A DNA stretch of 64,000 nucleotides from a virus (Duplodnaviria > Caudoviricetes). The stretch is from IMG/VR virus record IMGVR_UViG_3300037512_001279, positions 1 to 64,000 of that record; one strand, written 5' to 3'. The notes under the pieces are model-generated. The model was not told the DNA's origin, ran no database searches, and worked only from the letters and a program-made list of their open reading frames with translations. Positions 1,708 through 52,058 of this stretch are shown here, one piece after another; position 1 is the stretch's first letter, and every line of letters begins with the position of its first letter. The translations under genes and the position numbers were made by a program.

Positions 1708-4338
1708 GTGATTAACCTGGGAGAGTTTGGATTAAAGATCAAAAACATTGAAGCCAGTACGTTGTTTGAACACAATAACGGCGTTCGCGACCACTATGAA
1801 TACAAGGACGCAATGTTCGTGAACAGTCTTTTTAAGGATTTCCTTGACGCAAACGGTCTTGAAAACTGGAAGGACGAGTCAACAAGAGACATCATATGTC
1901 TTGAATTCAACTACGGATCGCGTTCGTTTAAGGATGAAATGGATCATCTTGAAGGCGTAATGCGAACGGCAAGGCGCGAATTCCGCAATGCTTCAAGAAA
2001 AAAAGATTTATTTTTAATGGAAAAAGCTTTGAAAAAGCGCAAAAAACTTTCAGATTTAACTAAAAATGCAGTAAAAAATAAAAAAAATTATCAAAAACTT
2101 TCAAAAGAAGAATTAAGAATACTTTATTACAACGAAGGCGTGGAAGTTCCGTACAAAACTTACTCAAGGGACGGGGCGGTAAAAAAGACTGAAGTCATAA
2201 AATATAAGATGTTGTACCGTTCCACCGGAAAGGCAAAGCGTGGCAGTTGCATGTTTATAAGGCAGGAACTGTACGACAAGGCAAGGAATTTTCTTTACAT
2301 GGGAATGGAACTTCCAAAAGAAAACGCACCAATTGTCGAAGCGTCTGCATACGTTCCTCTCATATCTTCAGGAATCGTCGGGCGGATAAAGATAAATCCG
2401 CGCAACGTTCTTATCTTAGAAGACGTTGACAGGTTCTTTACGACGAACGTCATCAGCATAGAGACGGACAAGGACAGGCACTGCGTTGCAAAGCACCTTG
2501 ACAACTACAAACTGAAGAATACGATGTTTGACGGTCAAGCACTGATAGACTCTTCCATCTTTCCTGAATGGGGAAACGGGTACGTGCTTTTAAGGCATCA
2601 CTTTTTTAAGGCGGCTGCATTCTGTACTAACATTCAAAAGTTCTTTAAGGATTACTTTGGTGACGAGTATGAAACGGCTAAGGTTACTGACATGTTTGGC
2701 ATTGAACACTTTGTAAAGGACGTTGAAATGATAACAACCGACAATGCCGTAAAATGGACTAAAAAAGTTTTTGGGATCTCCTACGACTACTGGTGTAGGA
2801 AGGTTGAGGAAAACGGATGCACGTTCGGGGTTGTTAAAACTGCACATCCGTCAAAGCTTGGCGTCTATCAAAAGATGTCTTATCAGATGGTGAATTCTCT
2901 CAACGAGAAAACAATGGAGTCCGTGTGTAAGGAATCTGTTGATTACGTTTACAGGCTAAAGGCTGACGGTCAGGAATTTATGGACTTCCTTTTGAAGAAC
3001 AGAAACTTTTCCAATGACTTTGAGTTTCTGCATGAGATGTGCAAGTATAATCCTGATTTTGAAAGAAGCAGTTACTTTAGGGAACGCAAAAGAAAGATTA
3101 TTGAAAACTACGTTCTTGGACTAAAGAACGGTGAACTGATCCAGAACGGCGACAACCTGACGATTGTCGGATCTCCGTACGCAATGTTGCTTTATGCCGC
3201 TACCGGAAACCCTGACGACGTTGACAAGGACACGACGTTTGCCGTTGAGGAAGGAACAATACAATGCTATTCGGAAAGATTTGATGACGGAGAGTATTTG
3301 GCAGGATTTAGAAGTCCGTTTAACTCAAAGAATAACATGGATTATCTTCACAATCATTATGATGAAAGATTTAAAAAATACTTTACGTTGGGTAAAAACA
3401 TTATTGCCGTTAACATGAATTGTACTGATTTTCAAGAGAAAAATAATGGTAGCGACCAAGATTCGGACATGTTATACGTGACTAATCAGCAGGCAATAGT
3501 TGATCATGCTATGTGGTGTTATGAAAATTATCCAACAATAGTTAATAACATTCCAAAAGATAAGAACATATATTCCAGTTCAATGGATGATTATGCAAAA
3601 GTTGATAATCTCCTGTCGGCGTCTCAAACTGACATAGGTGAATCTTCAAATCTTGCACAGGTTGCACAATCATACAGTTATACGTTTAGTGATCCGAGAT
3701 ATGATGATTACTGCGCAATTCTTGCCGTATGTGCGCAACTCGCAATTGATTCGTCTAAGAGGCGCTTCGACATCGACATACCGGCAGAAATAAAATTAAT
3801 CAAAAAACAAATGGACGTAAAAGCAAACAAATATCCCATGTTCTGGTCAGTAATCAGACCTGGATTCAATAAGAATAATCTAAGTTCATTGATTCATTGT
3901 CCAATGAACTATCTATATAATCTAAGATTTAAACCAATCAAACCTGACGGCAATAATATACCAATGAATGAATTTTTTATAAAACATAAGCTAGACGTTG
4001 ATAAAAGAAAATGTAAGAAGGTTGAAGAGTTAATACAAAAGTATTCTTTAGAGGTACACGAGGAAAAGCTTGGCGACGGAGACACTGACTATCTTCTTCT
4101 TAGAAGCGACTATGACCAACTTATAAATGATTTAAGGCAAATTACTTTTTCAAAGAACACAATAGGTCTTATGTCTTGGCTAATAGACAGGGCATTTATG
4201 ATCAGCCCTGCAGTTCGCGGTCACATGGATGCGTCAAGCAGTCTTCTGAATAAAAACAGGTCGTTGTTAATCAAAATACTGTATGACTCTAATAAACAAG
4301 CATTATTTTCATGTTTCAAGCCTGGAGAGAAAAAATAA
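1708..4338 (+). CDS. single-subunit DNA-dependent RNA polymerase, SPbeta YonO-like (double-psi beta-barrel)
   Basis: 876 aa; GFRSP motif followed by catalytic-loop-like NNGSDQDSD (DxDxD); FDGQALI and QLAIDSSK motifs; positioned at head of the late region as yonO is in SPbeta. Confidence 0.85.
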   Translation: MINLGEFGLKIKNIEASTLFEHNNGVRDHYEYKDAMFVNSLFKDFLDANGLENWKDESTRDIICLEFNYGSRSFKDEMDHLEGVMRTARREFRNASRKKDLFLMEKALKKRKKLSDLTKNAVKNKKNYQKLSKEELRILYYNEGVEVPYKTYSRDGAVKKTEVIKYKMLYRSTGKAKRGSCMFIRQELYDKARNFLYMGMELPKENAPIVEASAYVPLISSGIVGRIKINPRNVLILEDVDRFFTTNVISIETDKDRHCVAKHLDNYKLKNTMFDGQALIDSSIFPEWGNGYVLLRHHFFKAAAFCTNIQKFFKDYFGDEYETAKVTDMFGIEHFVKDVEMITTDNAVKWTKKVFGISYDYWCRKVEENGCTFGVVKTAHPSKLGVYQKMSYQMVNSLNEKTMESVCKESVDYVYRLKADGQEFMDFLLKNRNFSNDFEFLHEMCKYNPDFERSSYFRERKRKIIENYVLGLKNGELIQNGDNLTIVGSPYAMLLYAATGNPDDVDKDTTFAVEEGTIQCYSERFDDGEYLAGFRSPFNSKNNMDYLHNHYDERFKKYFTLGKNIIAVNMNCTDFQEKNNGSDQDSDMLYVTNQQAIVDHAMWCYENYPTIVNNIPKDKNIYSSSMDDYAKVDNLLSASQTDIGESSNLAQVAQSYSYTFSDPRYDDYCAILAVCAQLAIDSSKRRFDIDIPAEIKLIKKQMDVKANKYPMFWSVIRPGFNKNNLSSLIHCPMNYLYNLRFKPIKPDGNNIPMNEFFIKHKLDVDKRKCKKVEELIQKYSLEVHEEKLGDGDTDYLLLRSDYDQLINDLRQITFSKNTIGLMSWLIDRAFMISPAVRGHMDASSSLLNKNRSLLIKILYDSNKQALFSCFKPGEKK

Positions 4339-4615: not shown

Positions 4616-4687
4616 CGCGAGATAGTGAAAATGGAATAATATGAGTCTCATACGCTCAAGTTCTGGATTCGAGTTCCAGTCTCGCTA
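4616..4687 (+). tRNA. tRNA with CAT anticodon (Met or Ile2)
   Basis: Acceptor CGCGAGA/TCTCGCT (C1:U72 mismatch), anticodon arm TGAGT-CTCATAC-GCTCA, T arm CTGGA-TTCGAGT-TCCAG; weak D stem. Confidence 0.75.
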
Positions 4688-4698
4688 TTCCATGGAGG

Positions 4699-4773
4699 GA
4701 CGACGTAGAGAAGCTCGGTCAATCTCGCCTGATTTGTTTCAGGAGATCGGCGGTTCAAATCCGCCCGTCGCTC
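4699..4773 (+). tRNA. tRNA-like gene with 6-nt anticodon loop (pseudo-tRNA, undetermined isotype)
   Basis: D arm GAGA/TCTC, anticodon arm CCTGA-TTTGTT-TCAGG, T arm GGCGG-TTCAAAT-CCGCC, acceptor GACGACG/CGTCGCT with one mismatch. Confidence 0.65.
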
Positions 4774-10215: not shown

Positions 10216-10558
10216 TTTGCATAACAGAACCTGCAACGCCTCTTAATAATGCGTACCACTGCAGGTCATTGAAATTTAGACCGATGATGCTTTAGGCATA
10301 TGGTGCAAAACCGCATCGGTCATTTGGTGTTCCGCCACCATAAGAGCGAGCCTTTAAACTACTGTTTGCCCATTACCATAAAAAGAAAATGGGCTTTACT
10401 TAGCTCATCTGCCATGTGTAGAAGGAGTATCGGAGTCGTCTTATTTAAGGCGCCTCTTGTTTTTTATAAGGAATTGCGGTGGATGTCTTCGGACTACACC
10501 TATAGGCTATCTGATGAGTCGGATAGCCTATTATATTGGAAATAAAGGAGGATTTGCC

Positions 10559-17545: not shown

Positions 17546-17616
17546 TGGGATATAGTTTAATGGTAGAACATGCGACTGTTAATCGCAGTATATGAGTTCA
17601 ATTCTCTTTGTCCCAG
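17546..17616 (+). tRNA. tRNA-Asn (GTT)
   Basis: Acceptor TGGGATA/TGTCCCA, anticodon arm TGCGA-CTGTTAA-TCGCA, T loop TTCAATT. Confidence 0.85.
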
Positions 17617-27446: not shown

Positions 27447-27845
27447 TCATTGTAGAATCCGCGTAGCGTAAGTTGCGTGATAAAACATTCATTGAATTGC
27501 TGGAAACCCCTAAAGACAATTAAACCACAACGCAAGGATGAAATATGCCTAATCGTGATGGTTACGAAAGTAGAAAAAATTAATTGTATGAAGACGAGGT
27601 TAAATCCCCTGTCTTTTTTTAATGGGCAATCAGCAGCCAAGCTCCGAACAAGAGAAGGTTCGACGGTCATTCCATTGGTCATAGAGATATGACAATAGAA
27701 GTACGGCTCAAGCGAGTGGGTGAAATTCCCTTAAATGGAAGTGGTGAATATCCTTTATAGGATAATGATATGACCTGTTCACGTGTGAGAGCACGTGGGG
27801 TTCAATAACCCAACATGGCGTAGCGTCCATAGTTAAACATTAAAG
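27447..27845 (+). mobile_element. group I intron (IA-like, ORF-less, 399 nt) in major capsid gene
   Basis: P1 GATTT/GAATC with U-G at 5' splice site, P4 TGCTGG/TCAGCA, P3 ATTCATT/GGTGAAT, P7 GGTCAT/ATGACC, terminal G 27845, P10 CATTG/CAATG. Confidence 0.88.
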
Positions 27846-40489: not shown

Positions 40490-43400
40490 ATGGCTGGGAA
40501 TACTGTTAGTATAGGTTTTGACTACAGAAAACAATTAGAAAAAGCCTGTAAAGATATAGAGCAATCTTTTGATAAAGTAATATCTTCGAATGATTATGGC
40601 AAAGATTTTGAAAAACAGATAAAGAACTTTAAAACAATGATTGCCGACATGAAAGATGATCTTTCGGATTCTTTTAAAGCTTTGTCAGACGGGAAGTTAA
40701 GTACGGAAAAATTTGAATCCTTTAAAGAGAACGTTAATAAGAAACTTAAAAACATAAATGATAGAGTTTCAGATTTAACGACAAACATAGATCAATTAAA
40801 CAAGGCATTAGGTTTTACCGGAGATAGCGTTGATTTAACAAGTGCTATTAATCAATTTAAGGAGCTTCAAGAATATATAAATACAAACAATGAAGCCGTT
40901 GAAAGGTTATTAAAAACACTTCAAACAGTTGATGGAAATCTTGAAATAAATGTTCCAAAGTTTTCTATTGATGAGGCAAAAGCACAGATAAAGCTTCTAA
41001 AAGGAATGATTAATGATTTAATGCAGGGTTCAAAAGAAGATATTTCTAAAAAACTTGCATCAATGACATCTAGCCAAATAGAAGTACTTTATTATGATTT
41101 ATCAGATAAATTTTCTGAATTGCAAGAGAAAAAAGACGAATTATTAGGAAAGATAAATGCAGCGCCAGACCAAAAGGATGGCGCTGTTTTAGCATTTAGG
41201 TCTGAATTGTCGCAGGCAGAAATTGAGATATCTAAATTGGCAGAAGACATAGAGGAAATATTTCAGTATGCCGGAGAAAGAAAATTCAAGTGGTTTGATT
41301 CAACCAAAAACGATAAAACAACAGTAAAATTTAGAAATACAATTTTAGAAATTAATAACAGTTTTGATGAAATAGAGACTAAATCACAAAAAATAATTAC
41401 TGATTTGCAAAGATATGTTGATTCGTTTTCTAATACTACTGCTAAAGTATCAGACAAACTAGAGGCTAACACTGGCGAAGTAAATGTTCAAGTAAAAATA
41501 GCTACTAGAAATGCCACTCTTATAAATGAATTAAAAGATAAAATAGAAAAGTTGCAAGAAGCATTAAATAATAAACCTCTAATTTTACCTGTAAAAATGG
41601 TTGTATCAAATGCCAGAACTACAAGCGAAGACCCATTAAAAACTAGCAAAGATGCAATAAATAAGGCAAGGAAGAAATTAAAAGAATCAACTGAAGATGT
41701 AGATATGGCAGATGCAATTCCAAAGCAGACATTGAAACAGGCTCTTATTAATGCTGAACGTGCTGCGAAGGAATCGTTTACTAGAATCCAAGAAATCTTT
41801 GATAAAACTCCTATCAACATTCATTTAACTGTTCCAGAGGAAGAAATACAGAAAATATCTGATTCTGTGTTTAGTGAAGACGGTAAAACTAAAATTGACA
41901 TTTCAAAACAAATAGATAATGCAAAAAAGAGAACGGATGAATTAATAAAATCTCTTAAAGAGGCAGATGAGACTGCATCAAAAACATTAAAAAAGAATAA
42001 ATATGCAGGGCTTGCTGAAGAAATACAAAAAAGCTTATCAGGGCTTGAAAGTCTTAAAGACATTCTTACTGCTATTCGTGATTTAGAAAGCACTCTTGGC
42101 AGAGCTACAAATGTAGCGACGAATAGTGATATTACTACTCAATGGAATAAAGTAAAGTTTTGGTTTGATTATATTTCTGATGAATCTGACAATATTAACT
42201 TTAATAAGCAAAGAGATCAAATAAATACATTGATGTCTGAATATCAGAAATACCTAAAAATGGGTGGACAAAATCCTCTTAGAAATCTTACCGATAATGA
42301 AGAAACAATAAGAAAATTATATAATAGATTCAACAAATTAAAAGACGTATCAGGAGATAAAATTGATGTCTCCGGAGAAGTTAAATCATTCAATGAAATA
42401 ACGGGTGCGGTTGATGAGTTAACCGTTGCTATTGGTGAAAAGAAAGTAGATGCAATAAATCAAGAAGCTTTGGCAATGGAAAGTGCTGCAGAAAGAGAAG
42501 TCAAAGCAATAAAATCAATAGACGACGAAATATCAGCGGCTCATTCTTCAGGGAAAAAAAATAAGCAGGATAAAGAATTAAAGAAAGAAAATATCCAAAA
42601 CATAGATGAATCTTCTTCTAAAATTACAGAAGAGTCTTTTGCTCTAGATAAAACTGCTGAATCAGCTGCGAATGCTGCAGAAGCAAAAGACAAATTTAGA
42701 AAATCTAATGAACTTCTTGCTACGAGTGCAAAAGATTCTGCAGATGCGTTGGCTATTGAAACTAATGCCCTGCAAGTTATTGAGAATATTGATTTAGATC
42801 ATAATTCTGATGAATTTAGAAATGCAGCAGAAGCCGCAAGAATGTATTGTGACGGGCTTGGCGAAATAGCTTCTATTACAAGAACATCCGGAACATATAA
42901 TACATATAACAGAAATACAGGCGAAATGGAACAAATGCTAAGAACATCGTACAGAGTTACTGATGTTAATGGCAATAGTCGTACGTTTAATCCACAAGGC
43001 AATATAATTGGTGCTAAAGATATTATAAATGCTACTGCCGCATATAGAGAATACTTAAAGATACAAGAACAAGTTTTTGCGATTAATAAAAAAGAGGCAT
43101 CTGGACAAGAATTATTAAATAGAGAAATTTCAGATAGAGAAAGTTTACTTAGAAAGCTTTCAGAACAAGAGGAATTAATTAATTCAATTGAGTCTAGAGG
43201 CCTTGAAAATTCTGAACTTAGAGAAGAAGTTGAAAGGCGAAGAATCGCAAATCAAAGGACTATTCAACAAATACAAAAAAATAGTATCTTAAACGGGCCT
43301 CTTGAAGGTTACGAAAGACAATTCTCATCATTAAATACAGATAAAAATTTATCAAAACAAACCGACGAATATAGAAGCAGATTGTTAGAGATTAATGATT

Positions 43401-44377
43401 TACTTCAAAGATTACAGGCATATAGAGACATAGATATATTTACAGATGAAGACGTTAATGATGTTACAAATTTAAGAACGCAGATAGATGGTTTATTTAA
43501 TGACTTATCCAACATGGATAAGGCTGCGAATAAGGCAAAGTCTTCCAGCGTACTTTCAAACATTACCGACTTCATAGCAAAAAATAGCAGGTTAAATTTG
43601 TCAAAACAAGGTAAGGAATACCTTTCTCAACTTGAAGAGTTACAGGATAGACTAAGAAGGGTTGGTCTTACTTCTAATGACATTCAAGATGTTGTTGCTG
43701 AGTTTAACAGATTAAAAATACAAATTACAGAAGCAGGGCTGGCTGGAAGAAGCTTTTTTGACATTATGAAGTCAAAAGCTTTCTATATGGCTGCTGAATA
43801 TCTCGCAAGGTATTTTAGTTTGCAAGATATTATTCGCTATATTAAAACTGCTGCCCAAAATGTTATTAATCTTAATACTCAGTTTACTGAGCTTGCAAAA
43901 GTTTCAGATACAAGCATTAAAAAACTCAATGCAGACTTTAAAGCATACGCAGACACAGCAAAAGAACTTGGTAGTACAATCACCGACACAATTTCTGCAA
44001 CGGCAGACTGGGCTAGAATGGGATATAATATTCCTGATAGCAAAGAACTCGCCCGTGTTGCTTTGATTTATAAGAATGTTGGCGACGGTATTGATATAAG
44101 TGCTGCAAACGAATCACTGATTTCTACATTACAAGGTTTCCAAATGGAAGCAAAAGACGCGTTACATATAATTGACGTGTTCAACGAAACTTCGAACAAC
44201 TTCGCAATTAGTTCGGCTGGAATTGGTGAAGCGTTACAAAGAAGTGCAGCTTCGTTTAATGCTGCTCATACGAGTCTTGAAAAATCTGTATCACTTGTTA
44301 CAACAACAAATACTGTATTACAAGATCCACAAGTTGTCGGAAATTTGTGGAAGACCATGAGTGCTCGAATTCGCGGT
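40490..44377 (+). CDS. tape measure protein exon 1 (join 40490..44377,44783..45319,46875..52058; 3202 aa)
   Basis: Long coiled coil ending in TP901-type TMP core (..WARMG..NNFAIS..SARIRG). Confidence 0.85.
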
Positions 44378-44782
44378 AAATTTGTGCCGTTTTATAGCGA
44401 AAGCTATAATGTGTGTTTCGAGTAAAAAATAATTACACACATAGATAACTATATAAGTCAAAAGATGATGGGACATCAGAGACTTAGGAAAGACTTATGA
44501 TTTTTATATATTTTTTAATTGGATGAAGAAGCCTGATTATTTAGCACTACAATTATAAAATATAAAAATCATAAGTATCCCAAGAGACTGCAGGACGCAT
44601 GTGGTAACATATGTGTTGAAGTTATCCCACTCTCCTATTATAGGAAATGGTAATATACAGTCCGATCCTACAATATAATCCCAAATTAATAAAATGAAAT
44701 GTAGGAATTTGGTAGAAATACCAAATCGCCATATATTATGGTCATAAAACTATTTCTCTGTATAGTTTAAGTAACAGAATTG
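44378..44782 (+). mobile_element. group I intron A in TMP (ORF-less, 405 nt)
   Basis: P1 CGGT/GCCG (U-G), P10 TTTGT/GCAAA, P3 GATAACT/AGTTATC, P4 TAAGTC/GACTTA, P7 GACTG/CAGTC, terminal G 44782; splicing gives ARIRG-AKTELEE. Confidence 0.9.
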
Positions 44783-45319
44783 GCAAAAACAGAGCTTGAA
44801 GAATTAAATGAAGAAGAGGATGAATTTACTGAGTCTACTTCTAAATTAAGAAGCCTTGTAAAAGGCCTTACTGGATTTGATATCATGCAAGATGAAGATA
44901 CATTCAAAGATTTGTATGATATTATTATTGGCATTGGTAAAGAGTGGAAAAATTTAACAGACATAGAGCGTGCTAGTCTTGGAGAGGCATTGGCTGGAAA
45001 AAGAATGGCGAACGGTCTTTACGCAGTGCTTGATAATCTAGATACTCTAGAAAAGGCATATAAAACTGCATCTGAATCTGATGGTTCCGCAATGCGTGAA
45101 CAGGAAAGATATCAACAGTCAATTCAATATTCAATTGACAGAACAAAAGCTTCTATTGAAGAGCTGTCAAACTCTTTACTTAATTCTGATTTACTCAAAT
45201 TCCTAGTTGATGTTGCAAACGGATTTGTTAACATTACAAATGAAGTAGTAAAATTCTCCGGTCTTCTCGGAACTATCGGCATCGGTGCTGGAGCATTTGC
45301 CGGAATAAAAAATCTCGGT
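44783..45319 (+). CDS. tape measure protein exon 2
   Basis: AKTELEE..IGKEW..L...E.LAGKR TMP-core continuation; no RBS of its own. Confidence 0.85.
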
Positions 45320-45376
45320 AGGAGTAAAAAGTTTCTCCTCAATTCATTGATGATTTGAAAATTTTTCAAAAATCTC

Positions 45377-45405
45377 TTGCATTTTATATGTACAGAGAAT
45401 ATAAT
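45377..45405 (+). promoter_or_regulatory. sigmaA promoter of candidate antitoxin RNA
   Basis: TTGCAT-N17-TATAAT. Confidence 0.7.
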
Positions 45406-45411
45406 TATATA

Positions 45412-45512
45412 AAAAGAAGAGGTAGTACCGTAGGACAAACGGTTCACCACAGTTTATAGTTACTGTATCAAATTAGCAACCACATACCTTGGGGAAGGGC
45501 GGTTGCTTTTTT
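45412..45512 (+). ncRNA. candidate type I antitoxin sRNA (about 100 nt)
   Basis: Lies between a sigmaA promoter and an AGCAACC..GGTTGCT+T-run terminator, antisense to the 3' UTR of the small peptide gene. Confidence 0.55.
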
Positions 45513-45518
45513 GATGGT

Positions 45519-45611
45519 TTATTTTTTGAAATGATCTAAGTACAAGCCGTAGATTACAACAACCGTCTGAACAGTTGCTACGGCAAGTGCTAAGATAGCT
45601 ATTACCATCAT
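45519..45611 (-). CDS. candidate type I toxin, 30-aa TM peptide MMVIAILALAVATVQTVVVIYGLYLDHFKK
   Basis: Translated by hand (below ORF-track cut-off); hydrophobic helix with basic C-terminus; GAAGGGG RBS; overlapped by a leader ORF in another frame. Confidence 0.65.
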   Translation of the reverse strand: MMVIAILALAVATVQTVVVIYGLYLDHFKK

Positions 45612-45767
45612 AGTACTTTCGTACCCCTTCGTTCTTATTTGCCATAGGCATCACTCTCCTTTTATTAGCGAAAAGTATTCCTTTGGCAGTTCTTTGGTTA
45701 AAGAACAACCAAGCGACTGAAGGGTGAACCGCTTACCCGTTTTAGTACTATCCTCTTCTTGTGCATT

Positions 45768-45796
45768 ATAATACTTTAAAGCATTCAAATTGTCAA
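45768..45796 (-). promoter_or_regulatory. sigmaA promoter of toxin mRNA
   Basis: TTGACA-N17-TATTAT on minus strand. Confidence 0.7.
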
Positions 45797-46179
45797 TAAA
45801 AAATATGCCGAGGCTCACGTCGTTTTATCCAGTAATGGAATTTTTGTCGTGAGTGAGTGGATACGCTACCACAACATAAACACCCAATATGATCCTAATG
45901 GATGCGCATGAGCAAACATGCGCCTGGGAAATGACATAATCCATTACTACTCTCCCGCTTTGGGTTTGTGAAAATGTAATGGATGTCATGGTCAGCAGGG
46001 AAGCTTCTGTTTACAGGAGAACCCCCACAGTAATGATATGGGTGGTAATATTAGCCTGAAACGACTAACATTACAATAGACATTCGAAACTAACCGACAT
46101 GGCGGTAATTTGCAGGAGGAAGTACTCTCCTCTCCATGAATTGTTGGGGCAGATCGGACTGCCTGAGTATGTCCAAAGT

Positions 46180-46209
46180 AAAAGCAACCACATAACGCGG
46201 TTGCTTTTT
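46180..46209. terminator. bidirectional intrinsic terminator ending the antisense cargo genes
   Basis: AAAAGCAACC-ACATAACGC-GGTTGCTTTTT. Confidence 0.7.
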
Positions 46210-46238
46210 GAAATAAAATCAAAATTTTATTTGATAGG

Positions 46239-46538
46239 TTACATAAACTTAAACAAATATATAAAAAATACAATTATGCTTATAACAATCCATGATATTA
46301 AAAATTTCTTGAAAAATCTTATATTTTTATTTATAGTACGAAGATGTTGCGTGATTTCTTCTAATTGTTCGTAAGCATCAAACTCGTAACACTCTTCCAT
46401 TTCGACATTGCAGTCTTTGCAATAAGTATCAGGTTCATCAGATGGTAGGTTGGCATAATCATTACATTCAGGGCATTTATATCTCTTGTATTTAATCATA
46501 ATATTATCTCTCCTTATACTAAGTATAAATAATAACAA
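46239..46538 (-). CDS. zinc-ribbon protein with C-terminal TM helix (intron cargo); true start probably MIKYK near 46499
   Basis: CPEC..CKDC, C-terminal hydrophobic helix, AAGGAG RBS. Confidence 0.7.
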   Translation of the reverse strand: MLLFILSIRRDNIMIKYKRYKCPECNDYANLPSDEPDTYCKDCNVEMEECYEFDAYEQLEEITQHLRTINKNIRFFKKFLISWIVISIIVFFIYLFKFM

Positions 46539-46815
46539 GAATTATTCCGCAAATTAATTCTAAAATCGTTAAAACAAAAAAGAATTTCATCATTTTATAA
46601 ATGCCATGTACGTCTTTCTCTAAATTATATGTTTTTTCAGTTGTCTGAGTGTTGTTAATATTTTCAACAACAGCTTCCGTCGTTGCTTCTACCTCACCAA
46701 AATTCTCAAGAGATCCTCCACAAACACGACATATTGATGGAACTTTATCTTCTGGTGAGATTTTGTATTCTTTGCCGCATTTATAGCAAACATATTTTTT
46801 TATTATATCCCCCAA
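46519..46815 (-). CDS. zinc-ribbon protein with C-terminal TM helix (intron cargo)
   Basis: CYKC..CRVC, C-terminal hydrophobic helix, GGAGGTG RBS before TTG. Confidence 0.75.
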   Translation of the reverse strand: MGDIIKKYVCYKCGKEYKISPEDKVPSICRVCGGSLENFGEVEATTEAVVENINNTQTTEKTYNLEKDVHGIYKMMKFFFVLTILELICGIILVIIYT

Positions 46816-46837
46816 TTGACATCACCTCCATATTTTA

Positions 46838-46866
46838 AGTATATCAACCAACATGATATTAGTCAA
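46838..46866 (-). promoter_or_regulatory. sigmaA promoter for antisense cargo genes
   Basis: TTGACT-N17-TATACT with TG extension. Confidence 0.7.
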
Positions 46867-46874
46867 ATAGTTTG

Positions 46875-49800
46875 AAATTTTTAGGAACACTTCCACAACT
46901 TAAAACCGCAATATCTTCTATTAGTGGATTATCTACAGATTTATTAGCAAATGGAGCTGATGGTTACATAAATGCAGTTAAAGGAATGACTGCACAAAAC
47001 GCTCTTCTTGTATTGTCTTATAAGAATTTAAGCGCAGCAGAAAAGAAAGAGATTCTTATCAAGGCCGGTGTTATTTCTGCTGATCAAGAGTTAATTGGAG
47101 AAAATGCACTTTTAGCTAAGTCAAATATCTCATTATCCGGAACATTTGGTATTATTGCAAGGAAGGCTGCTATGTCTGCTGCAGCAATTTTATCCAATCC
47201 AATTACATGGCTAGTTGGTGCAGTAGCCGCAACTACAATTGCAATAAAGAAAATGAACGAAGCCGTAGAAGAAGGCAGAGATAAAGCACAGGAATTGGGT
47301 TCGGAATTTGCAGATATTTCGCAAGAGCTTGATTCTTATAAAGAAAAAATAACTGAATTAACAGACAAAATAAAAGACCAGAAATCTTCAATCGAAACCG
47401 TGGTTGATTCAAGAAGACAGCTTGGTAAAATTCAGGATGAGCTTGTAAATAAATACGGTCATGAAGCAGAAGTAATTAATGCTGTTACAGATGCTATTAA
47501 TGGTCAGTCAGATGCAATAAATAATCTGTTTAATACAGTGTCTGCAGATGAGTGGCAAAAGGTAATGAACCAAATTAATAACACTGGTTTTTGGGCAAAT
47601 GCGGCGAACTGGCGTGACAACTACAAAGATCAGGTTGATCGTATAGAGCATGAATTATTTAATGAAACATATTCATTAACCGCTGCTGATAGCAGAATAT
47701 CTGTAGAACAAAGAAAATATTTTAAGAGCCTGCTTACTGAAAGGGGATGGACATATAATGAAGATAATATGTTCATGCAGTACACCGGAAGTAGAGAAAA
47801 AGCATTAAATGATATTCTTGATATTCAACAGGAGTTATCAAAGAAATTTGGCGATGATTTATCAAAAGTTCTATCTAAGACATTAACAGATTCATATAAC
47901 AGCATTAATGAAGTCTACGAAAAGTATAAAGAATTCAAAGATCAGTTTGTATTAAATTCTGTAATATTTAATCCACAGTACATGTTACAAAATGGTGAAG
48001 CAAACGGAGATTACCTTGCAAATGTATTATTAGGTTTAGAGGAAGAATACGAAGCATATATTTCGGCAGCAAACGAAGATGCTCAAAAGGCTGCCCTGCA
48101 AGGTCTTGCAAATCACCTAAGAGAGATTTTCAGCGAAGAAAATATTCCACAACTTGTTAAGGATTACATTAAACAATTATTCCCAACAATTTTTACAGAA
48201 GAAGATACAAAAATCACTCAAATAGAAAACGCAAAAAATCTTGCTAGAAATAAGGCATACGACAGTTTATATGCTGAAGCTTCTGGCTCTATGAATCGTA
48301 CTGATCAAGAAAAATTCAGAGAAGCTACTGGATTTGACAAAAAATACAATGCATTCATAGAAGAATATAAGATTGACTCCGAAGAAGAACTTGAACTTCT
48401 TGATGCATATATTGCAAAATATAAAGATCTTGATAAGGCATTTAGCCGGTATGCACAGGATGTAAAAACAGAATCACCTGTTCTTGATTACGAAGGCAAA
48501 AAAGACAGATCTAATTATACCGCCGACGATTACATAGAAGAAACAAAGTCTAACATCATTTCTCTTGGTGACGCTCTTAATAAACTTCAGACTAAAACAA
48601 TGACGTCTGCAGACAGAATGGCATTGTTTAAAGATTTTCCTGAGTTAGAATCAAGAGCAAACGACCTTGAAGAAGCGATTGGCGAAAAACTCGTCGGAGC
48701 AATTGATACATTAGAAAAGACAACCGGTAAGCAGTTAGCGCCTGAAATTAGACAGGGACTATTTGAACTTACTAGCGGCGCACTTCAAGCAAACAGAACT
48801 CTTAATGAAACGTTTAATACAATTAAAAACAGTTCAAGTGTTCTTAAGGAATTTAAGACAACTCTTAAGAATGGCGATCCAATTACTGAATCACTACTCT
48901 CTTCCATCGCAGGATTAAGTGACGAACTTGACACCTTAGTCGCAGGATTCTATGGCGGCGTTGTAACAGTTGAAGAGCTTTATGATGCCGTTGAAAAACA
49001 GCGTGAAGTTGATTTTGAGCGTTACAAGCAGTCTTACATAATGAAGCAGGCGCTCGATGAGAATTACTATAAAAATGCCATTGCGGGGCATAAAGAAGTA
49101 GTAAAACTGTTTAATGAACAGTATAAGATAGACCTTAGAAATTATACAAGCTATCAGATGGCGAAGTCTGAAGTTCAAAAGAAGATTCTTGGTCAGAATA
49201 TGAAGATGATATCTTTATATTATGACATTGAACAGATGCAATATACGGATGCCTATGCTAAACTTGAGAATGAAGCAAAGGCTTCTGTTGGACATTCTTA
49301 TGGCGAATATACAAAAGTTCGTTCTCTAATAAACGAATATAAACAAGCCATTGATGACCTTAATCAAATCGGCTGGACTGACTTCTTGGATGAACTTGAC
49401 AAGATGACTCTTGGCGATTTTGACAAGATTTCGGGTTCTACTAAGGATTATAAGGAACTCTTCGACTTCTTTGAGCGTCGTCTCGAAATTATTGATCAAT
49501 CGCTTAATAAGCTCGACGCATCACTTGAAGAAGTAAACGGCTCCATGGCAAAGAACATTCTTATTGCCGGTAAGATGAACATCGTGTCGAAACAGATTCA
49601 GGACTACACTTCTGCCCTCACGATGTACGAAAATAAGGCAAATCAGGAGCTGTCAAAACTCTCTGCAGACATGCAGGAAAAGATTAAGAACGGCTCTGTA
49701 AGCATTACTCAGCTTATTGGCGAGAATGGCGAAGAAGTTAACAAGACACTCGAGGAATACAAGAAGTGGGCAGACAAAGTAAACGACTGCAACGTTAAAC

Positions 49801-52058
49801 TTCTTGAGCTGCGTGAAACTCTGCGTGACCTCGCGCTTGAGAAATTCAACAACATTGCACAGGATTACTCCGACCAGTTTGACATTCTTGGTTCATCTAA
49901 CGACCTAATTGAAAAACAGATTTCATTGTTTGAAGAGGCAGGTCAGTTAATCGGTCGTGCGTTTTATGAAACTCAAATCGAGGCATCTCAGAAACAACGC
50001 ACAATTCTTGAGAAAGAAAAAGCCGCGCTTATTAAAGAGATGACGTCGGCGCTCTCTTCCGGTTACATTCAGAAGGGCAATGATGAATGGCTCGAAATGG
50101 CGAAGAGCATACAGGAAGTTGATTCCAGTATTCTCGACGTTGACCAATCCATAGAACAGCTTCAGAACTCCTTACTCGAACTCAACGACAAAGTATTTGA
50201 ACGCCTGCAGAATACGTTCTCAGACATCAATTCTCAGCTTTCCAACATTGTTGGAATGATCAGTGACGTTGACGTATCTGACGAATCTGGCGTATGGTCT
50301 GATGAAGGTCTTACTCAGTTAGGCGCATATGCACAGCAGTATGAGCTTGCGAGACACAACGTTGAGAAATATGAGGAAGAGATTCAGAAGCTCAATCAGT
50401 CCTACAGCGACGGTTTGTACTCTACTACGGAATACATTGACAAGCTCTCCGATCTTGCTCAGGCACAATGGGAGCAGGCCAATGCTGCAGAAGATGCAAA
50501 GAAGTCCATACTTGAACTTAACAAGGCAAGGGTTGAACTCGTAAAAGAAGGAATTCAAAAGCAGATTGACGCTTACAAGGAACTTATTGATAAGCAGAAA
50601 GAGGCTCTTGACCAGGAGAAATCCATCCGCGATTACGAGAAGACCATTGCAGAAAAGAATAAAAACATCAACAAACTGCAGAATCAGATTAACCTGTTAA
50701 GGAATGATGATTCTGCCGCGGCAAACGCTAAGAGAATTAAGCTTGAACAGGAGCTTGCTGATGCCAAGGCTGACCTTGAGGAAACTCAGTATGATCATTC
50801 AGTAGAGGCACAGAAGGAAGCCCTTGACAAGCAACTTGAAGATTTTGAAGATGCAAGGCAACAGGAAATTGATGAGTTAGAGGAATACCTGAAAGACGTC
50901 GAAAGGGTTCAGAAGGATTCGTTTGAAATCATCAAAAAGAATACCGACAAGATTGCAAAGCAAATCGAGAACATTGCCAAGACTCACGGCGTTGTTATTT
51001 CTGAAGCGATCACTAATTCTTGGAAGTCAGGTGAAGGGGCAATCGCCTCTTACGGTACTGCACTCTCATCTGCTTCCAGTGGATTTATTCAGCAGATCCA
51101 CGAGATTGAAATATATCTCGTCGCACTTCAGGATGAAGCTGACCTAACCGCAGACAGACTTGTTGGAATGTTGTCGGCTAAGGCTGATAACCTTCTTAAT
51201 GAATTTAATGCTGCAAGAGATTCCGAGAATGAACTTATCAGGGCAACCAATCTTCTTAATGAAGCATTGATTAAGACTCTTGAGGGTAATTATGACATTA
51301 GCGGAATTATTGGTGCGTTAAAGGAAGTTCAAAATCAGGTTGACGAAACCAAAAATAAGTTAACTGGTTCAACAAGCACAGGCAACGTTTCAAGTTCTAC
51401 TCAAAAAGCAATTCAGGATACCGTTTCTGCCGTTGCAAACGCAGGAGTCAAGGTTATTCCTGACGAACAAGTTAATGCAATAAAGAAACAGCAGGAACTT
51501 GATGCTCTCTCGTTTGATTATTACTATTACTGGAAACCAAAGACTCATGAGTATACGGCAGAGTATAAGAAACTTTCAGATGCCGTAAGATCTGGAGACA
51601 GTCAGGCTGCAATAGTTAAGAATAAGGTTGACAATGCCGTAGCAAGTTATCTTGCGAAGGAAGCTGCGATACTCAAGAAGTATGAAGGATTTGCCACCGG
51701 CGTACACAACCTTAACAGAACTCAGTTCGCATGGACTCAGGAGCAGGGTAACGAACTTGTGCTCTCTCCTACCAGAAATGCGATTCTTACCAAGCTAAAC
51801 AAGGGTGACACCGTACTTACTAAGGATCAGACAGACAACTTGTTTAAGTTAAGCAAGATTGATCCTGATTCCATCTTTGGTAAATTCGGCAAGATCAACG
51901 GAGTTGCAAGAGTTGAAGCTCCCGTACTTAGCATTGGAAACGTTCTTACCGTTAATGGAAACATTGACGACACGAATGCAGAAAAGATGAAGACCATTGC
52001 AATGTCTGCAATCAACACGGCCTTCAAGAAGTTCTCTAGTGAAATCGTTAAAAGATAA
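46875..52058 (+). CDS. tape measure protein exon 3
   Basis: NPITW.. hydrophobic segment then long coiled coil ending FATG..AW.QE.G.E; no RBS upstream. Confidence 0.85.
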   Translation, partial: KFLGTLPQLKTAISSISGLSTDLLANGADGYINAVKGMTAQNALLVLSYKNLSAAEKKEILIKAGVISADQELIGENALLAKSNISLSGTFGIIARKAAMSAAAILSNPITWLVGAVAATTIAIKKMNEAVEEGRDKAQELGSEFADISQELDSYKEKITELTDKIKDQKSSIETVVDSRRQLGKIQDELVNKYGHEAEVINAVTDAINGQSDAINNLFNTVSADEWQKVMNQINNTGFWANAANWRDNYKDQVDRIEHELFNETYSLTAADSRISVEQRKYFKSLLTERGWTYNEDNMFMQYTGSREKALNDILDIQQELSKKFGDDLSKVLSKTLTDSYNSINEVYEKYKEFKDQFVLNSVIFNPQYMLQNGEANGDYLANVLLGLEEEYEAYISAANEDAQKAALQGLANHLREIFSEENIPQLVKDYIKQLFPTIFTEEDTKITQIENAKNLARNKAYDSLYAEASGSMNRTDQEKFREATGFDKKYNAFIEEYKIDSEEELELLDAYIAKYKDLDKAFSRYAQDVKTESPVLDYEGKKDRSNYTADDYIEETKSNIISLGDALNKLQTKTMTSADRMALFKDFPELESRANDLEEAIGEKLVGAIDTLEKTTGKQLAPEIRQGLFELTSGALQANRTLNETFNTIKNSSSVLKEFKTTLKNGDPITESLLSSIAGLSDELDTLVAGFYGGVVTVEELYDAVEKQREVDFERYKQSYIMKQALDENYYKNAIAGHKEVVKLFNEQYKIDLRNYTSYQMAKSEVQKKILGQNMKMISLYYDIEQMQYTDAYAKLENEAKASVGHSYGEYTKVRSLINEYKQAIDDLNQIGWTDFLDELDKMTLGDFDKISGSTKDYKELFDFFERRLEIIDQSLNKLDASLEEVNGSMAKNILIAGKMNIVSKQIQDYTSALTMYENKANQELSKLSADMQEKIKNGSVSITQLIGENGEEVNKTLEEYKKWADKVNDCNVKLLELRETLRDLALEKFNNIAQDYSDQFDILGSSNDLIEKQISLFEEAGQLIGRAFYETQIEASQKQRTILEKEKAALIKEMTSALSSGYIQKGNDEWLEMAKSIQEVDSSILDVDQSIEQLQNSLLELNDKVFERLQNTFSDINSQLSNIVGMISDVDVSDESGVWSDEGLTQLGAYAQQYELARHNVEKYEEEIQKLNQSYSDGLYSTTEYIDKLSDLAQAQWEQANAAEDAKKSILELNKARVELVKEGIQKQIDAYKELIDKQKEALDQEKSIRDYEKTIAEKNKNINKLQNQINLLRNDDSAAANAKRIKLEQELADAKADLEETQYDHSVEAQKEALDKQLEDFEDARQQEIDELEEYLKDVERVQKDSFEIIKKNTDKIAKQIENIAKTHGVVISEAITNSWKSGEGAIASYGTALSSASSGFIQQIHEIEIYLVALQDEADLTADRLVGMLSAKADNLLNEFNAARDSENELIRATNLLNEALIKTLEGNYDISGIIGALKEVQNQVDETKNKLTGSTSTGNVSSSTQKAIQDTVSAVANAGVKVIPDEQVNAIKKQQELDALSFDYYYYWKPKTHEYTAEYKKLSDAVRSGDSQAAIVKNKVDNAVASYLAKEAAILKKYEGFATGVHNLNRTQFAWTQEQGNELVLSPTRNAILTKLNKGDTVLTKDQTDNLFKLSKIDPDSIFGKFGKINGVARVEAPVLSIGNVLTVNGNIDDTNAEKMKTIAMSAINTAFKKFSSEIVKR

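Follow-up and report, generated by a model that had tools for sequence, protein, structure and literature searches.

Split phage genes raise the question of whether the sequence between their parts is a gene boundary or an intron. In the window (the 64,000-nt stretch analysed here, comprising the first 64 kb of a viral contig of 121,656 bases), a single tape-measure profile is covered in successive parts by three reading frames (Table 1), and a structured core at positions 45813-46177 sits in the second gap between these frames. A preliminary description of this stretch had proposed that the core is a non-canonical group I fold with extra helices at both J3/4 and J6/7. We therefore asked what interrupts the tape-measure gene and how its core compares with the group I plan. 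Group I introns in tape-measure genes have already been published (e.g. PMC4299906, PMC3706429).

The exon 2 and exon 3 sequences of the window lie side by side in uninterrupted homologues. One of these, L002, is 73% identical to the window in exon 2 and encodes a single unbroken tape-measure frame of 3971 amino acids. Because homologues run unbroken across the junction, the second gap is an intervening sequence, and the gene that it splits is normally continuous. Homology to exon 2 stops exactly at position 45319, and exon 3 has neither a ribosome-binding site nor a credible start. We conclude that 45320-46874 (1555 nt, plus strand) is very probably a group I-type intron, with its core at 45813-46177, in the tape-measure gene of a ~120-kb gut siphophage.

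Table 1. Coordinates in the window of the tape-measure frames, the splice-site pairings and the helices of the intron core. Pairing and compensatory-change values refer to the 39 distinct cores of the family.
Feature	Position	Strand	Observation
Tape-measure reading frames	40490-44425, 44780-45358, 46872-52058	+	Consecutive parts of one tape-measure profile matched
P1 5' strand	45314-45319	+	Last six bases of exon 2; 6/6 pairs with 45807-45812; 5' splice site after U45319
P1 extension hairpin	45320-24/45335-39	+	Homologue of the family's P1 loop hairpin
Guide sequence	P10 strand 45799-45806; P1 3' strand 45807-45812	+	Directly 5' of the fold
P2; P2a; P2.1	45813-19/45848-54; 45828-31/45836-39; 45857-60/45869-72	+	Covary across the family; GNRA-type loop on P2a
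P3 5' strand	45881-85 and 45887-89	+	45886 bulged; partner 46037-46044; 2 compensatory pairs, 94.6% paired
Hairpin A	45892-95/45900-03	+	100% paired; 3/4 pairs compensatory; recovered by RNAalifold
Hairpin B	45904-10/45917-23	+	98.5% paired; 7/7 pairs compensatory; recovered by RNAalifold
P4	45924-27/45992-95	+	4 bp, invariant in 39/39; includes a G-U pair
J4/5	45928-30	+	A-rich, conserved
P5; P5a	45931-37/45983-89; 45941-47/45976-82	+	Each with 4 compensatory pairs, 100% paired
P5b	45954-56/45962-64	+	Enclosed within P4
P6; P6a	45998-46000/46022-24; 46004-09/46014-19	+	Both covary
J6/7	46025-27	+	3 nt
P7 5' strand	46028, 46030, 46032-35	+	46029 and 46031 bulged; partner 46081-86; 100% paired, 2 compensatory pairs
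P3 3' strand	46037-44	+	Pairs with P3 5' strand
P8 hairpin	46045-46074	+	7/7 pairs compensatory, 87.5% paired
J8/7; P7 3' strand	46075-80; 46081-86	+	Invariant or compensatory across 39 sequences
P9.0 5' strand	46087-46092	+	Directly after P7; 6/6 pairs with 46868-46873
P9 domain	46093-96/46103-06, 46115-18/46127-30, 46148-52/46159-63, within 46093-46176	+	Equivalents in the family covary
P9.0 3' strand and terminal G	46868-73 and G46874	+	3' splice site after 46874
P10 3' strand	46875-46882	+	First bases of exon 3; 7/8 pairs with 45799-45806
Other elements named in the preliminary description	Hexamers 46030-35 and 46069-74; pentamer 46079-83	+	Present

Both ends of the intron are marked by three pairings, P1, P9.0 and P10, each of which covaries in the family. 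P1 pairs U45319 with G45807 at the 5' splice site and shows both-side changes in homologues; its loop contains a ~460-nt insertion that is found in the window copy only and is without counterpart in the family. P9.0 spans 780 nt to reach the 3' end, and two of its pairs are altered on both sides relative to the family. Of 14 loci that include both intron ends, 13 combine P9.0 with a terminal G and an in-frame junction, the window being one of the 13, and a blind scan of the 17.9 kb downstream of the core returned 46874 as the best combined match to P9.0 and P10. In a homologous locus, L009, the exon end and the guide differ from those of the window by a compensatory change, P10 extends to 11 bp, and the reading frame is kept from exon to exon over an intron of 4.5 kb.

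In one subgroup of the family (L025, L029, L041, L044, L051, L059, L076, L088 and L092), an A and an extra U replace the guide G (columns 11-17 of alignment A3, described below). In these members the last pair of P1 would be U-A, with a bulge, in place of the U-G wobble.

The splice-site pairings and in-frame junctions are shown here, as are the family and its helices with their covariation, and from them we infer splicing and catalysis of the 45320-46874 intron. The reaction would be the usual two-step transesterification. In the proposed sequence of events, the guide (45799-45812) would pair with the end of exon 2 to form P1, with the U-G pair at U45319, and a free guanosine held in P7 (pairs 46030-46085 and 46028-46086, with 46029 bulged) would attack the 5' splice site. 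P9.0 (46087-92/46868-73) and P10 would bring in the distant 3' end, where G46874 would occupy P7 instead of the free guanosine, with the exons then joined in frame.

We identified ~80 related copies of the core, representing 39 distinct sequences, in gut-phage contigs, all at the same tape-measure codon. Contigs with a likewise split tape-measure gene came to light when the beginning of exon 3 was used as a protein query; one of them, L009, has a counterpart of the structured stretch, 66% identical, directly after its exon 2. A motif common to the window and L009 copies was used for wider scans, which recovered 24 true loci in viral contigs and ~39 loci in metagenomes, mostly from human gut. 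A second, independent motif added 17 further viral loci, diverged members included. The core motif has no match among prokaryote genomes scanned at one genome per species, and thus no host can be assigned from prophages. A blastn search of the region against phage records gave no match, and nothing was found in scans for related loci with the start of exon 3 and with the zinc-ribbon protein of the cargo, or in a scan for the duplicated terminator described below.

The 39 distinct cores were aligned (alignment A3, from which the chance match L040 was taken out), and pairs were counted on a structure written down from the group I strand order. These homologues, collected from tape-measure loci, reveal a conserved structure: 93.0% of cells form standard pairs, compared with 34-44% when the 3' partners are slid, and 66 of the 99 proposed pairs have compensatory, both-side changes. 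None of 500 shuffles reached the observed pairing values. Covariation is present in all of P2, P2a, P2.1, P5, P5a, P6a, P8, P9, P9a and the 3' pseudoknot, and RNAalifold, which was blind to the model, recovers hairpins A and B, P2, P4-P6a, P8 and P9. The combination of invariant core strands and covarying peripheral helices in an essential structural gene indicates selection for a working fold.

On either strand, the stretch also folds significantly better than its shuffles (plus strand: z -4.64, with 0 of 100 shuffles as good). A minus-strand RNA was considered and rejected: it folds slightly better when taken alone (z -5.38), but the conserved G-U pairs and all of the splice-site pairings exist only on the plus strand. 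The plus strand is fixed because the invariant G-U of P4 and many other G-U pairs would become A-C mismatches if read on the opposite strand.

The order of core strands is canonical (P3, P4-P5-P6, J6/7, P7, P3', P8, P7', P9.0), with J3/4 as the sole exception. The P3/P7 pseudoknot is present in the order P7-P3'-P8-P7', with compensatory pairs in P3, P7 and P8. P7 carries a bulged base beside a G-C pair, which is the putative guanosine site. The segment running from J6/7 into P7, with its bulge beside G-C, resembles, by comparison with Tetrahymena, the classical conserved R element of the group I core.

The window pairs of P2, P2a and P2.1 were checked by hand, and P6 of the window copy has G-C in place of C-G. 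Covariation in the P9 domain of the family includes an H-type pseudoknot; the window version of this domain is the most diverged and is aligned loosely. P4 is unproven by covariation because it never varies, and both P3 and P4 face competition from local pairing between 45883-86 and 45925-28. Contacts of loops L2a or L2.1 with L9a have no supporting covariation on inspection by eye.

Other pairings were weighed as well. An alternative P4, formed with the 3' strand of hairpin A and enclosing hairpin B, is wobble-compatible; it leaves three paired changes in hairpin A unexplained and was judged less likely. The minimum-energy closure of the whole domain (45858-63/46169-76) is not kept in the family. 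A pairing of a conserved P5 loop with the 3' end was dropped, as the segment extends P5a. Placing the P7 3' strand at 46859-64 was rejected, since P7 closes at 46081-86 and the intron's 3' end takes part in P9.0.

J3/4 and J6/7 are considered an unchanging component of the scaffold of the group I active site, and J3/4 is normally 3 nt long. In the window, the place of this short single-stranded linker is occupied by two hairpins (45892-45923). Hairpins A and B are found in every family member, with linkers of 2 nt between P3 and hairpin A, 0 nt between the two hairpins and 0 nt between hairpin B and P4. Since helices fill J3/4 and leave no free base beside P4, the usual base triples between J3/4 and P6 cannot form in the standard way. 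The intron belongs to a previously uncatalogued group I-type family whose core has two conserved hairpins at the usual three-base linker.

These results bear differently on the two junctions singled out by the preliminary description, whose named sequence elements are all present in the window. The two hairpins that it placed between P3 and P4 are borne out by their conservation and covariation among the 39 homologues and by RNAalifold. The extra branched domain that it placed in J6/7 is not: the pairing 46030-35/46069-74 that was to close this domain is not kept in the family, and what lies there instead is P7 (5' strand), P3 (3' strand) and P8, with 46069-74 serving as the 3' strand of P8. 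J6/7 has three nucleotides, and the supposed insertion came from misassigned P7 and P8 strands.

The family falls outside the reach of the standard group I covariance model. RF00028 gave no match up to E 10 for the window intron or for other members and finds nothing in the sister family described below, and the region has no Rfam match at gathering threshold. In the same phage, RF00028 finds two other introns, with scores of 57.5 bits (79906-80160 of the contig, minus strand) and 48 bits (27455-27797 of the window, plus strand), the latter just under the 50-bit cut-off. Because both tape-measure families are missed while other introns are found, the RF00028 miss is real yet not specific to the hairpins.

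The phage carries at least four candidate introns. The first gap of the same tape-measure gene contains an ORF-less insertion at 44378-44782, with limits set by L002, whose sequence passes directly from 44377 to 44783-86; this insertion has no match to RF00028. Elsewhere in the window are an abiF RNA motif match (43.6 bits, 10230-10266, plus strand) and three tRNA genes (within 4616-4773 and 17546-17616, both plus strand).

Relative to group I introns as represented by RF00028 and classes IA-IE, the window family differs in having two conserved hairpins in place of a 3-nt J3/4 and in having its 3' splice site 0.8 to ~7 kb from the core. Class IA2 is the usual phage class of group I intron. The window family is not of this class, because the single base between P7 and P3' (46036, in 39 of 39 sequences) leaves no room for P7.1/P7.2 hairpins.

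A second family clarifies how this core may have arisen. The profile of the window family matches one further locus, L008, weakly, and a motif derived from L008 identified ten more viral loci (together the sister family, L008 and L097-L106). Members of both families are inserted at the same codon and have a near-identical P1, guide, P2, P2a and P2.1, with similar P5b, P6, P8 loop, J8/7, P9.0 strand and 3' pseudoknot. Unlike the window family, the sister family has a canonical 5-nt J3/4, followed by a 5-bp P4 built from different strands. This P4 is 100% paired, with compensatory changes in three of its five pairs, and resembles the classical conserved P and Q elements, as the two strands of P4 are called in the group I core. 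The sister P3 is short and is accompanied by a 5-nt J7/3, and the inner pairs of P7 differ from those of the window family by compensatory changes.

Two resemblances suggest where the strands of the window family have counterparts. The 5' strand of the window-family P4 resembles a small optional hairpin inside the sister P5a, and the loop of hairpin B resembles the sister internal loop between P5 and P5a. The P3-P4 region thus appears to have been rearranged in one lineage. As the sister family shares the site and the periphery while having a canonical J3/4, the window type is most simply explained as derived by rearrangement from a canonical ancestor, which would give the direction of the change. 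The preliminary description had suggested a new subclass, a protein-assisted intron or a partly rearranged ribozyme, and the first and last of these agree with the J3/4 family, the RF00028 miss and the canonical sister; no insertion at J6/7 forms part of them.

Other observations concern loci at the edge of these families. In the cargo of the L008 intron, the Rfam 6A RNA motif has two matches in tandem (3608-3708), just upstream of a 151-aa ORF; they may represent a repeat-RNA antitoxin arrangement. Positions 1-300 of L007, a truncated contig, match neither intron family profile. This segment is GC-richer and apparently structured, and is followed by an antisense 185-aa ORF and then an exon 3-like tape-measure frame.

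We tentatively propose, as a possibility short of an even chance, that the two hairpins stand in for the J3/4 strand in the triple-helical scaffold and constitute a new group I core architecture, which would have arisen from a canonical ancestor of the kind seen in the sister family when P4 was rebuilt with a different 5' strand. This architecture may be linked to splicing across kilobases of cargo.

It is rather unlikely, though a serious contender, that the window holds an ordinary group I intron in which the two hairpins are a known optional element of the 'P3.1' type and the core is not unusual. P3.1 has been named among the optional group I pairings (PMC3873408), and the remainder of the core is canonical. 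Against this, the RF00028 search finds nothing and a sister family occupies the same site without the insertion. Our literature search, of incomplete coverage, also found no description of the P3.1 layout, of a group I subgroup with two J3/4 hairpins, or of a two-hairpin subgroup without a linker before P4.

A decayed intron seems improbable. Such an intron would have lost autonomous activity along with the J3/4 strand of the triple helix, and would need a protein cofactor or splice poorly, as could be read from the lack of free nucleotides beside P4, the alternative pairing that competes with P3 and P4, and the loss of the U-G wobble in some members. Decay fits poorly with an invariant core and covarying periphery in 39 distinct sequences from ~80 contigs, all in an essential gene, and the cargo has no conserved maturase-like gene.

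Finally, a free-standing structured ncRNA or moron cassette between two separately translated tape-measure genes is highly improbable: the lack of an Rfam match, the terminator-like hairpin right after the fold (46183-46209), and the promoter-like sites and antisense genes around it would suit such an element, but the guide pairs both with exon 2 at its end and with exon 3 at its start and covaries across the family, the strand after P7 pairs and covaries with the six bases before an in-frame junction 780 nt away, and an exon 3 lacking start signals has homologues that are unbroken at the junction.

The P9 domain and the 3' strand of P9.0 bracket all of the cargo, and introns of the family measure 1.8 to ~7 kb (L009, L025, L037, L057, L076, L088 and others). 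Family cargo includes ToxN, PemK/MazF, GmrSD N-terminal domain and DUF2513 proteins as well as zinc-ribbon membrane proteins. A minus-strand zinc-ribbon protein is almost always encoded immediately ahead of the 3' exon. The cargo of the family showed no homing endonuclease.

The window copy contains two near-identical, sense-strand, terminator-like hairpins inside the intron (45475-45511 and 46183-46209), which share exact repeats of 12 and 13 nt. The second lies directly after the 3' domain of the ribozyme and upstream of the 3' splice site. Because terminators precede the 3' splice site, transcription read-through would be needed. The family members that we read (e.g. L009) have no terminator at that place.

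The insertion in the P1 loop has a content of its own. On the minus strand, an ORF at 45519-45611 encodes a 30-residue hydrophobic peptide, with a promoter-like site at 45796..45768. A facing plus-strand unit has a promoter-like site near 45376-45410 and ends at the 45475-45511 terminator. Together, the peptide ORF and the facing unit look like a type I toxin-antitoxin pair, present in the P1 loop of the window copy only.

The layout of these introns recalls two known systems. In the T4 nrdD (sunY) intron, Michel et al. in 1992 reportedly found that terminal pairings recruit a remote 3' splice junction. That intron likewise combines a compact 5' core with a long 3' insertion, and differs in having a sense-strand endonuclease-type ORF, class IA2 membership and a normal J3/4. 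IStrons are class IA2 group I introns with an insertion sequence fused at the 3' end (PMC4227781). Like them, the window family has a ribozyme core at the 5' end and kilobases of foreign genes between it and the 3' splice site, without a homing endonuclease; unlike them, its cargo consists of variable small genes and not a transposon, and its core class is different. No transposase family, IS200/IS605- and IS607-type included, was found among the ten cargo ORFs scanned or the small ORFs of the window.

These introns matter for group I biology and for phage annotation alike. A natural, widespread family without a free J3/4, together with a canonical sister at the same site, provides a pair with which to ask how much of the scaffold is dispensable. 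The standard covariance model misses whole phage intron families, so that the parts of a tape-measure gene split in this way are probably being annotated as separate genes in gut-phage contigs. The cargo of toxin-antitoxin-like and defence-like genes, spanning 0.8 to ~7 kb in place of a homing endonuclease, bears on how accessory genes are accommodated inside essential phage genes.
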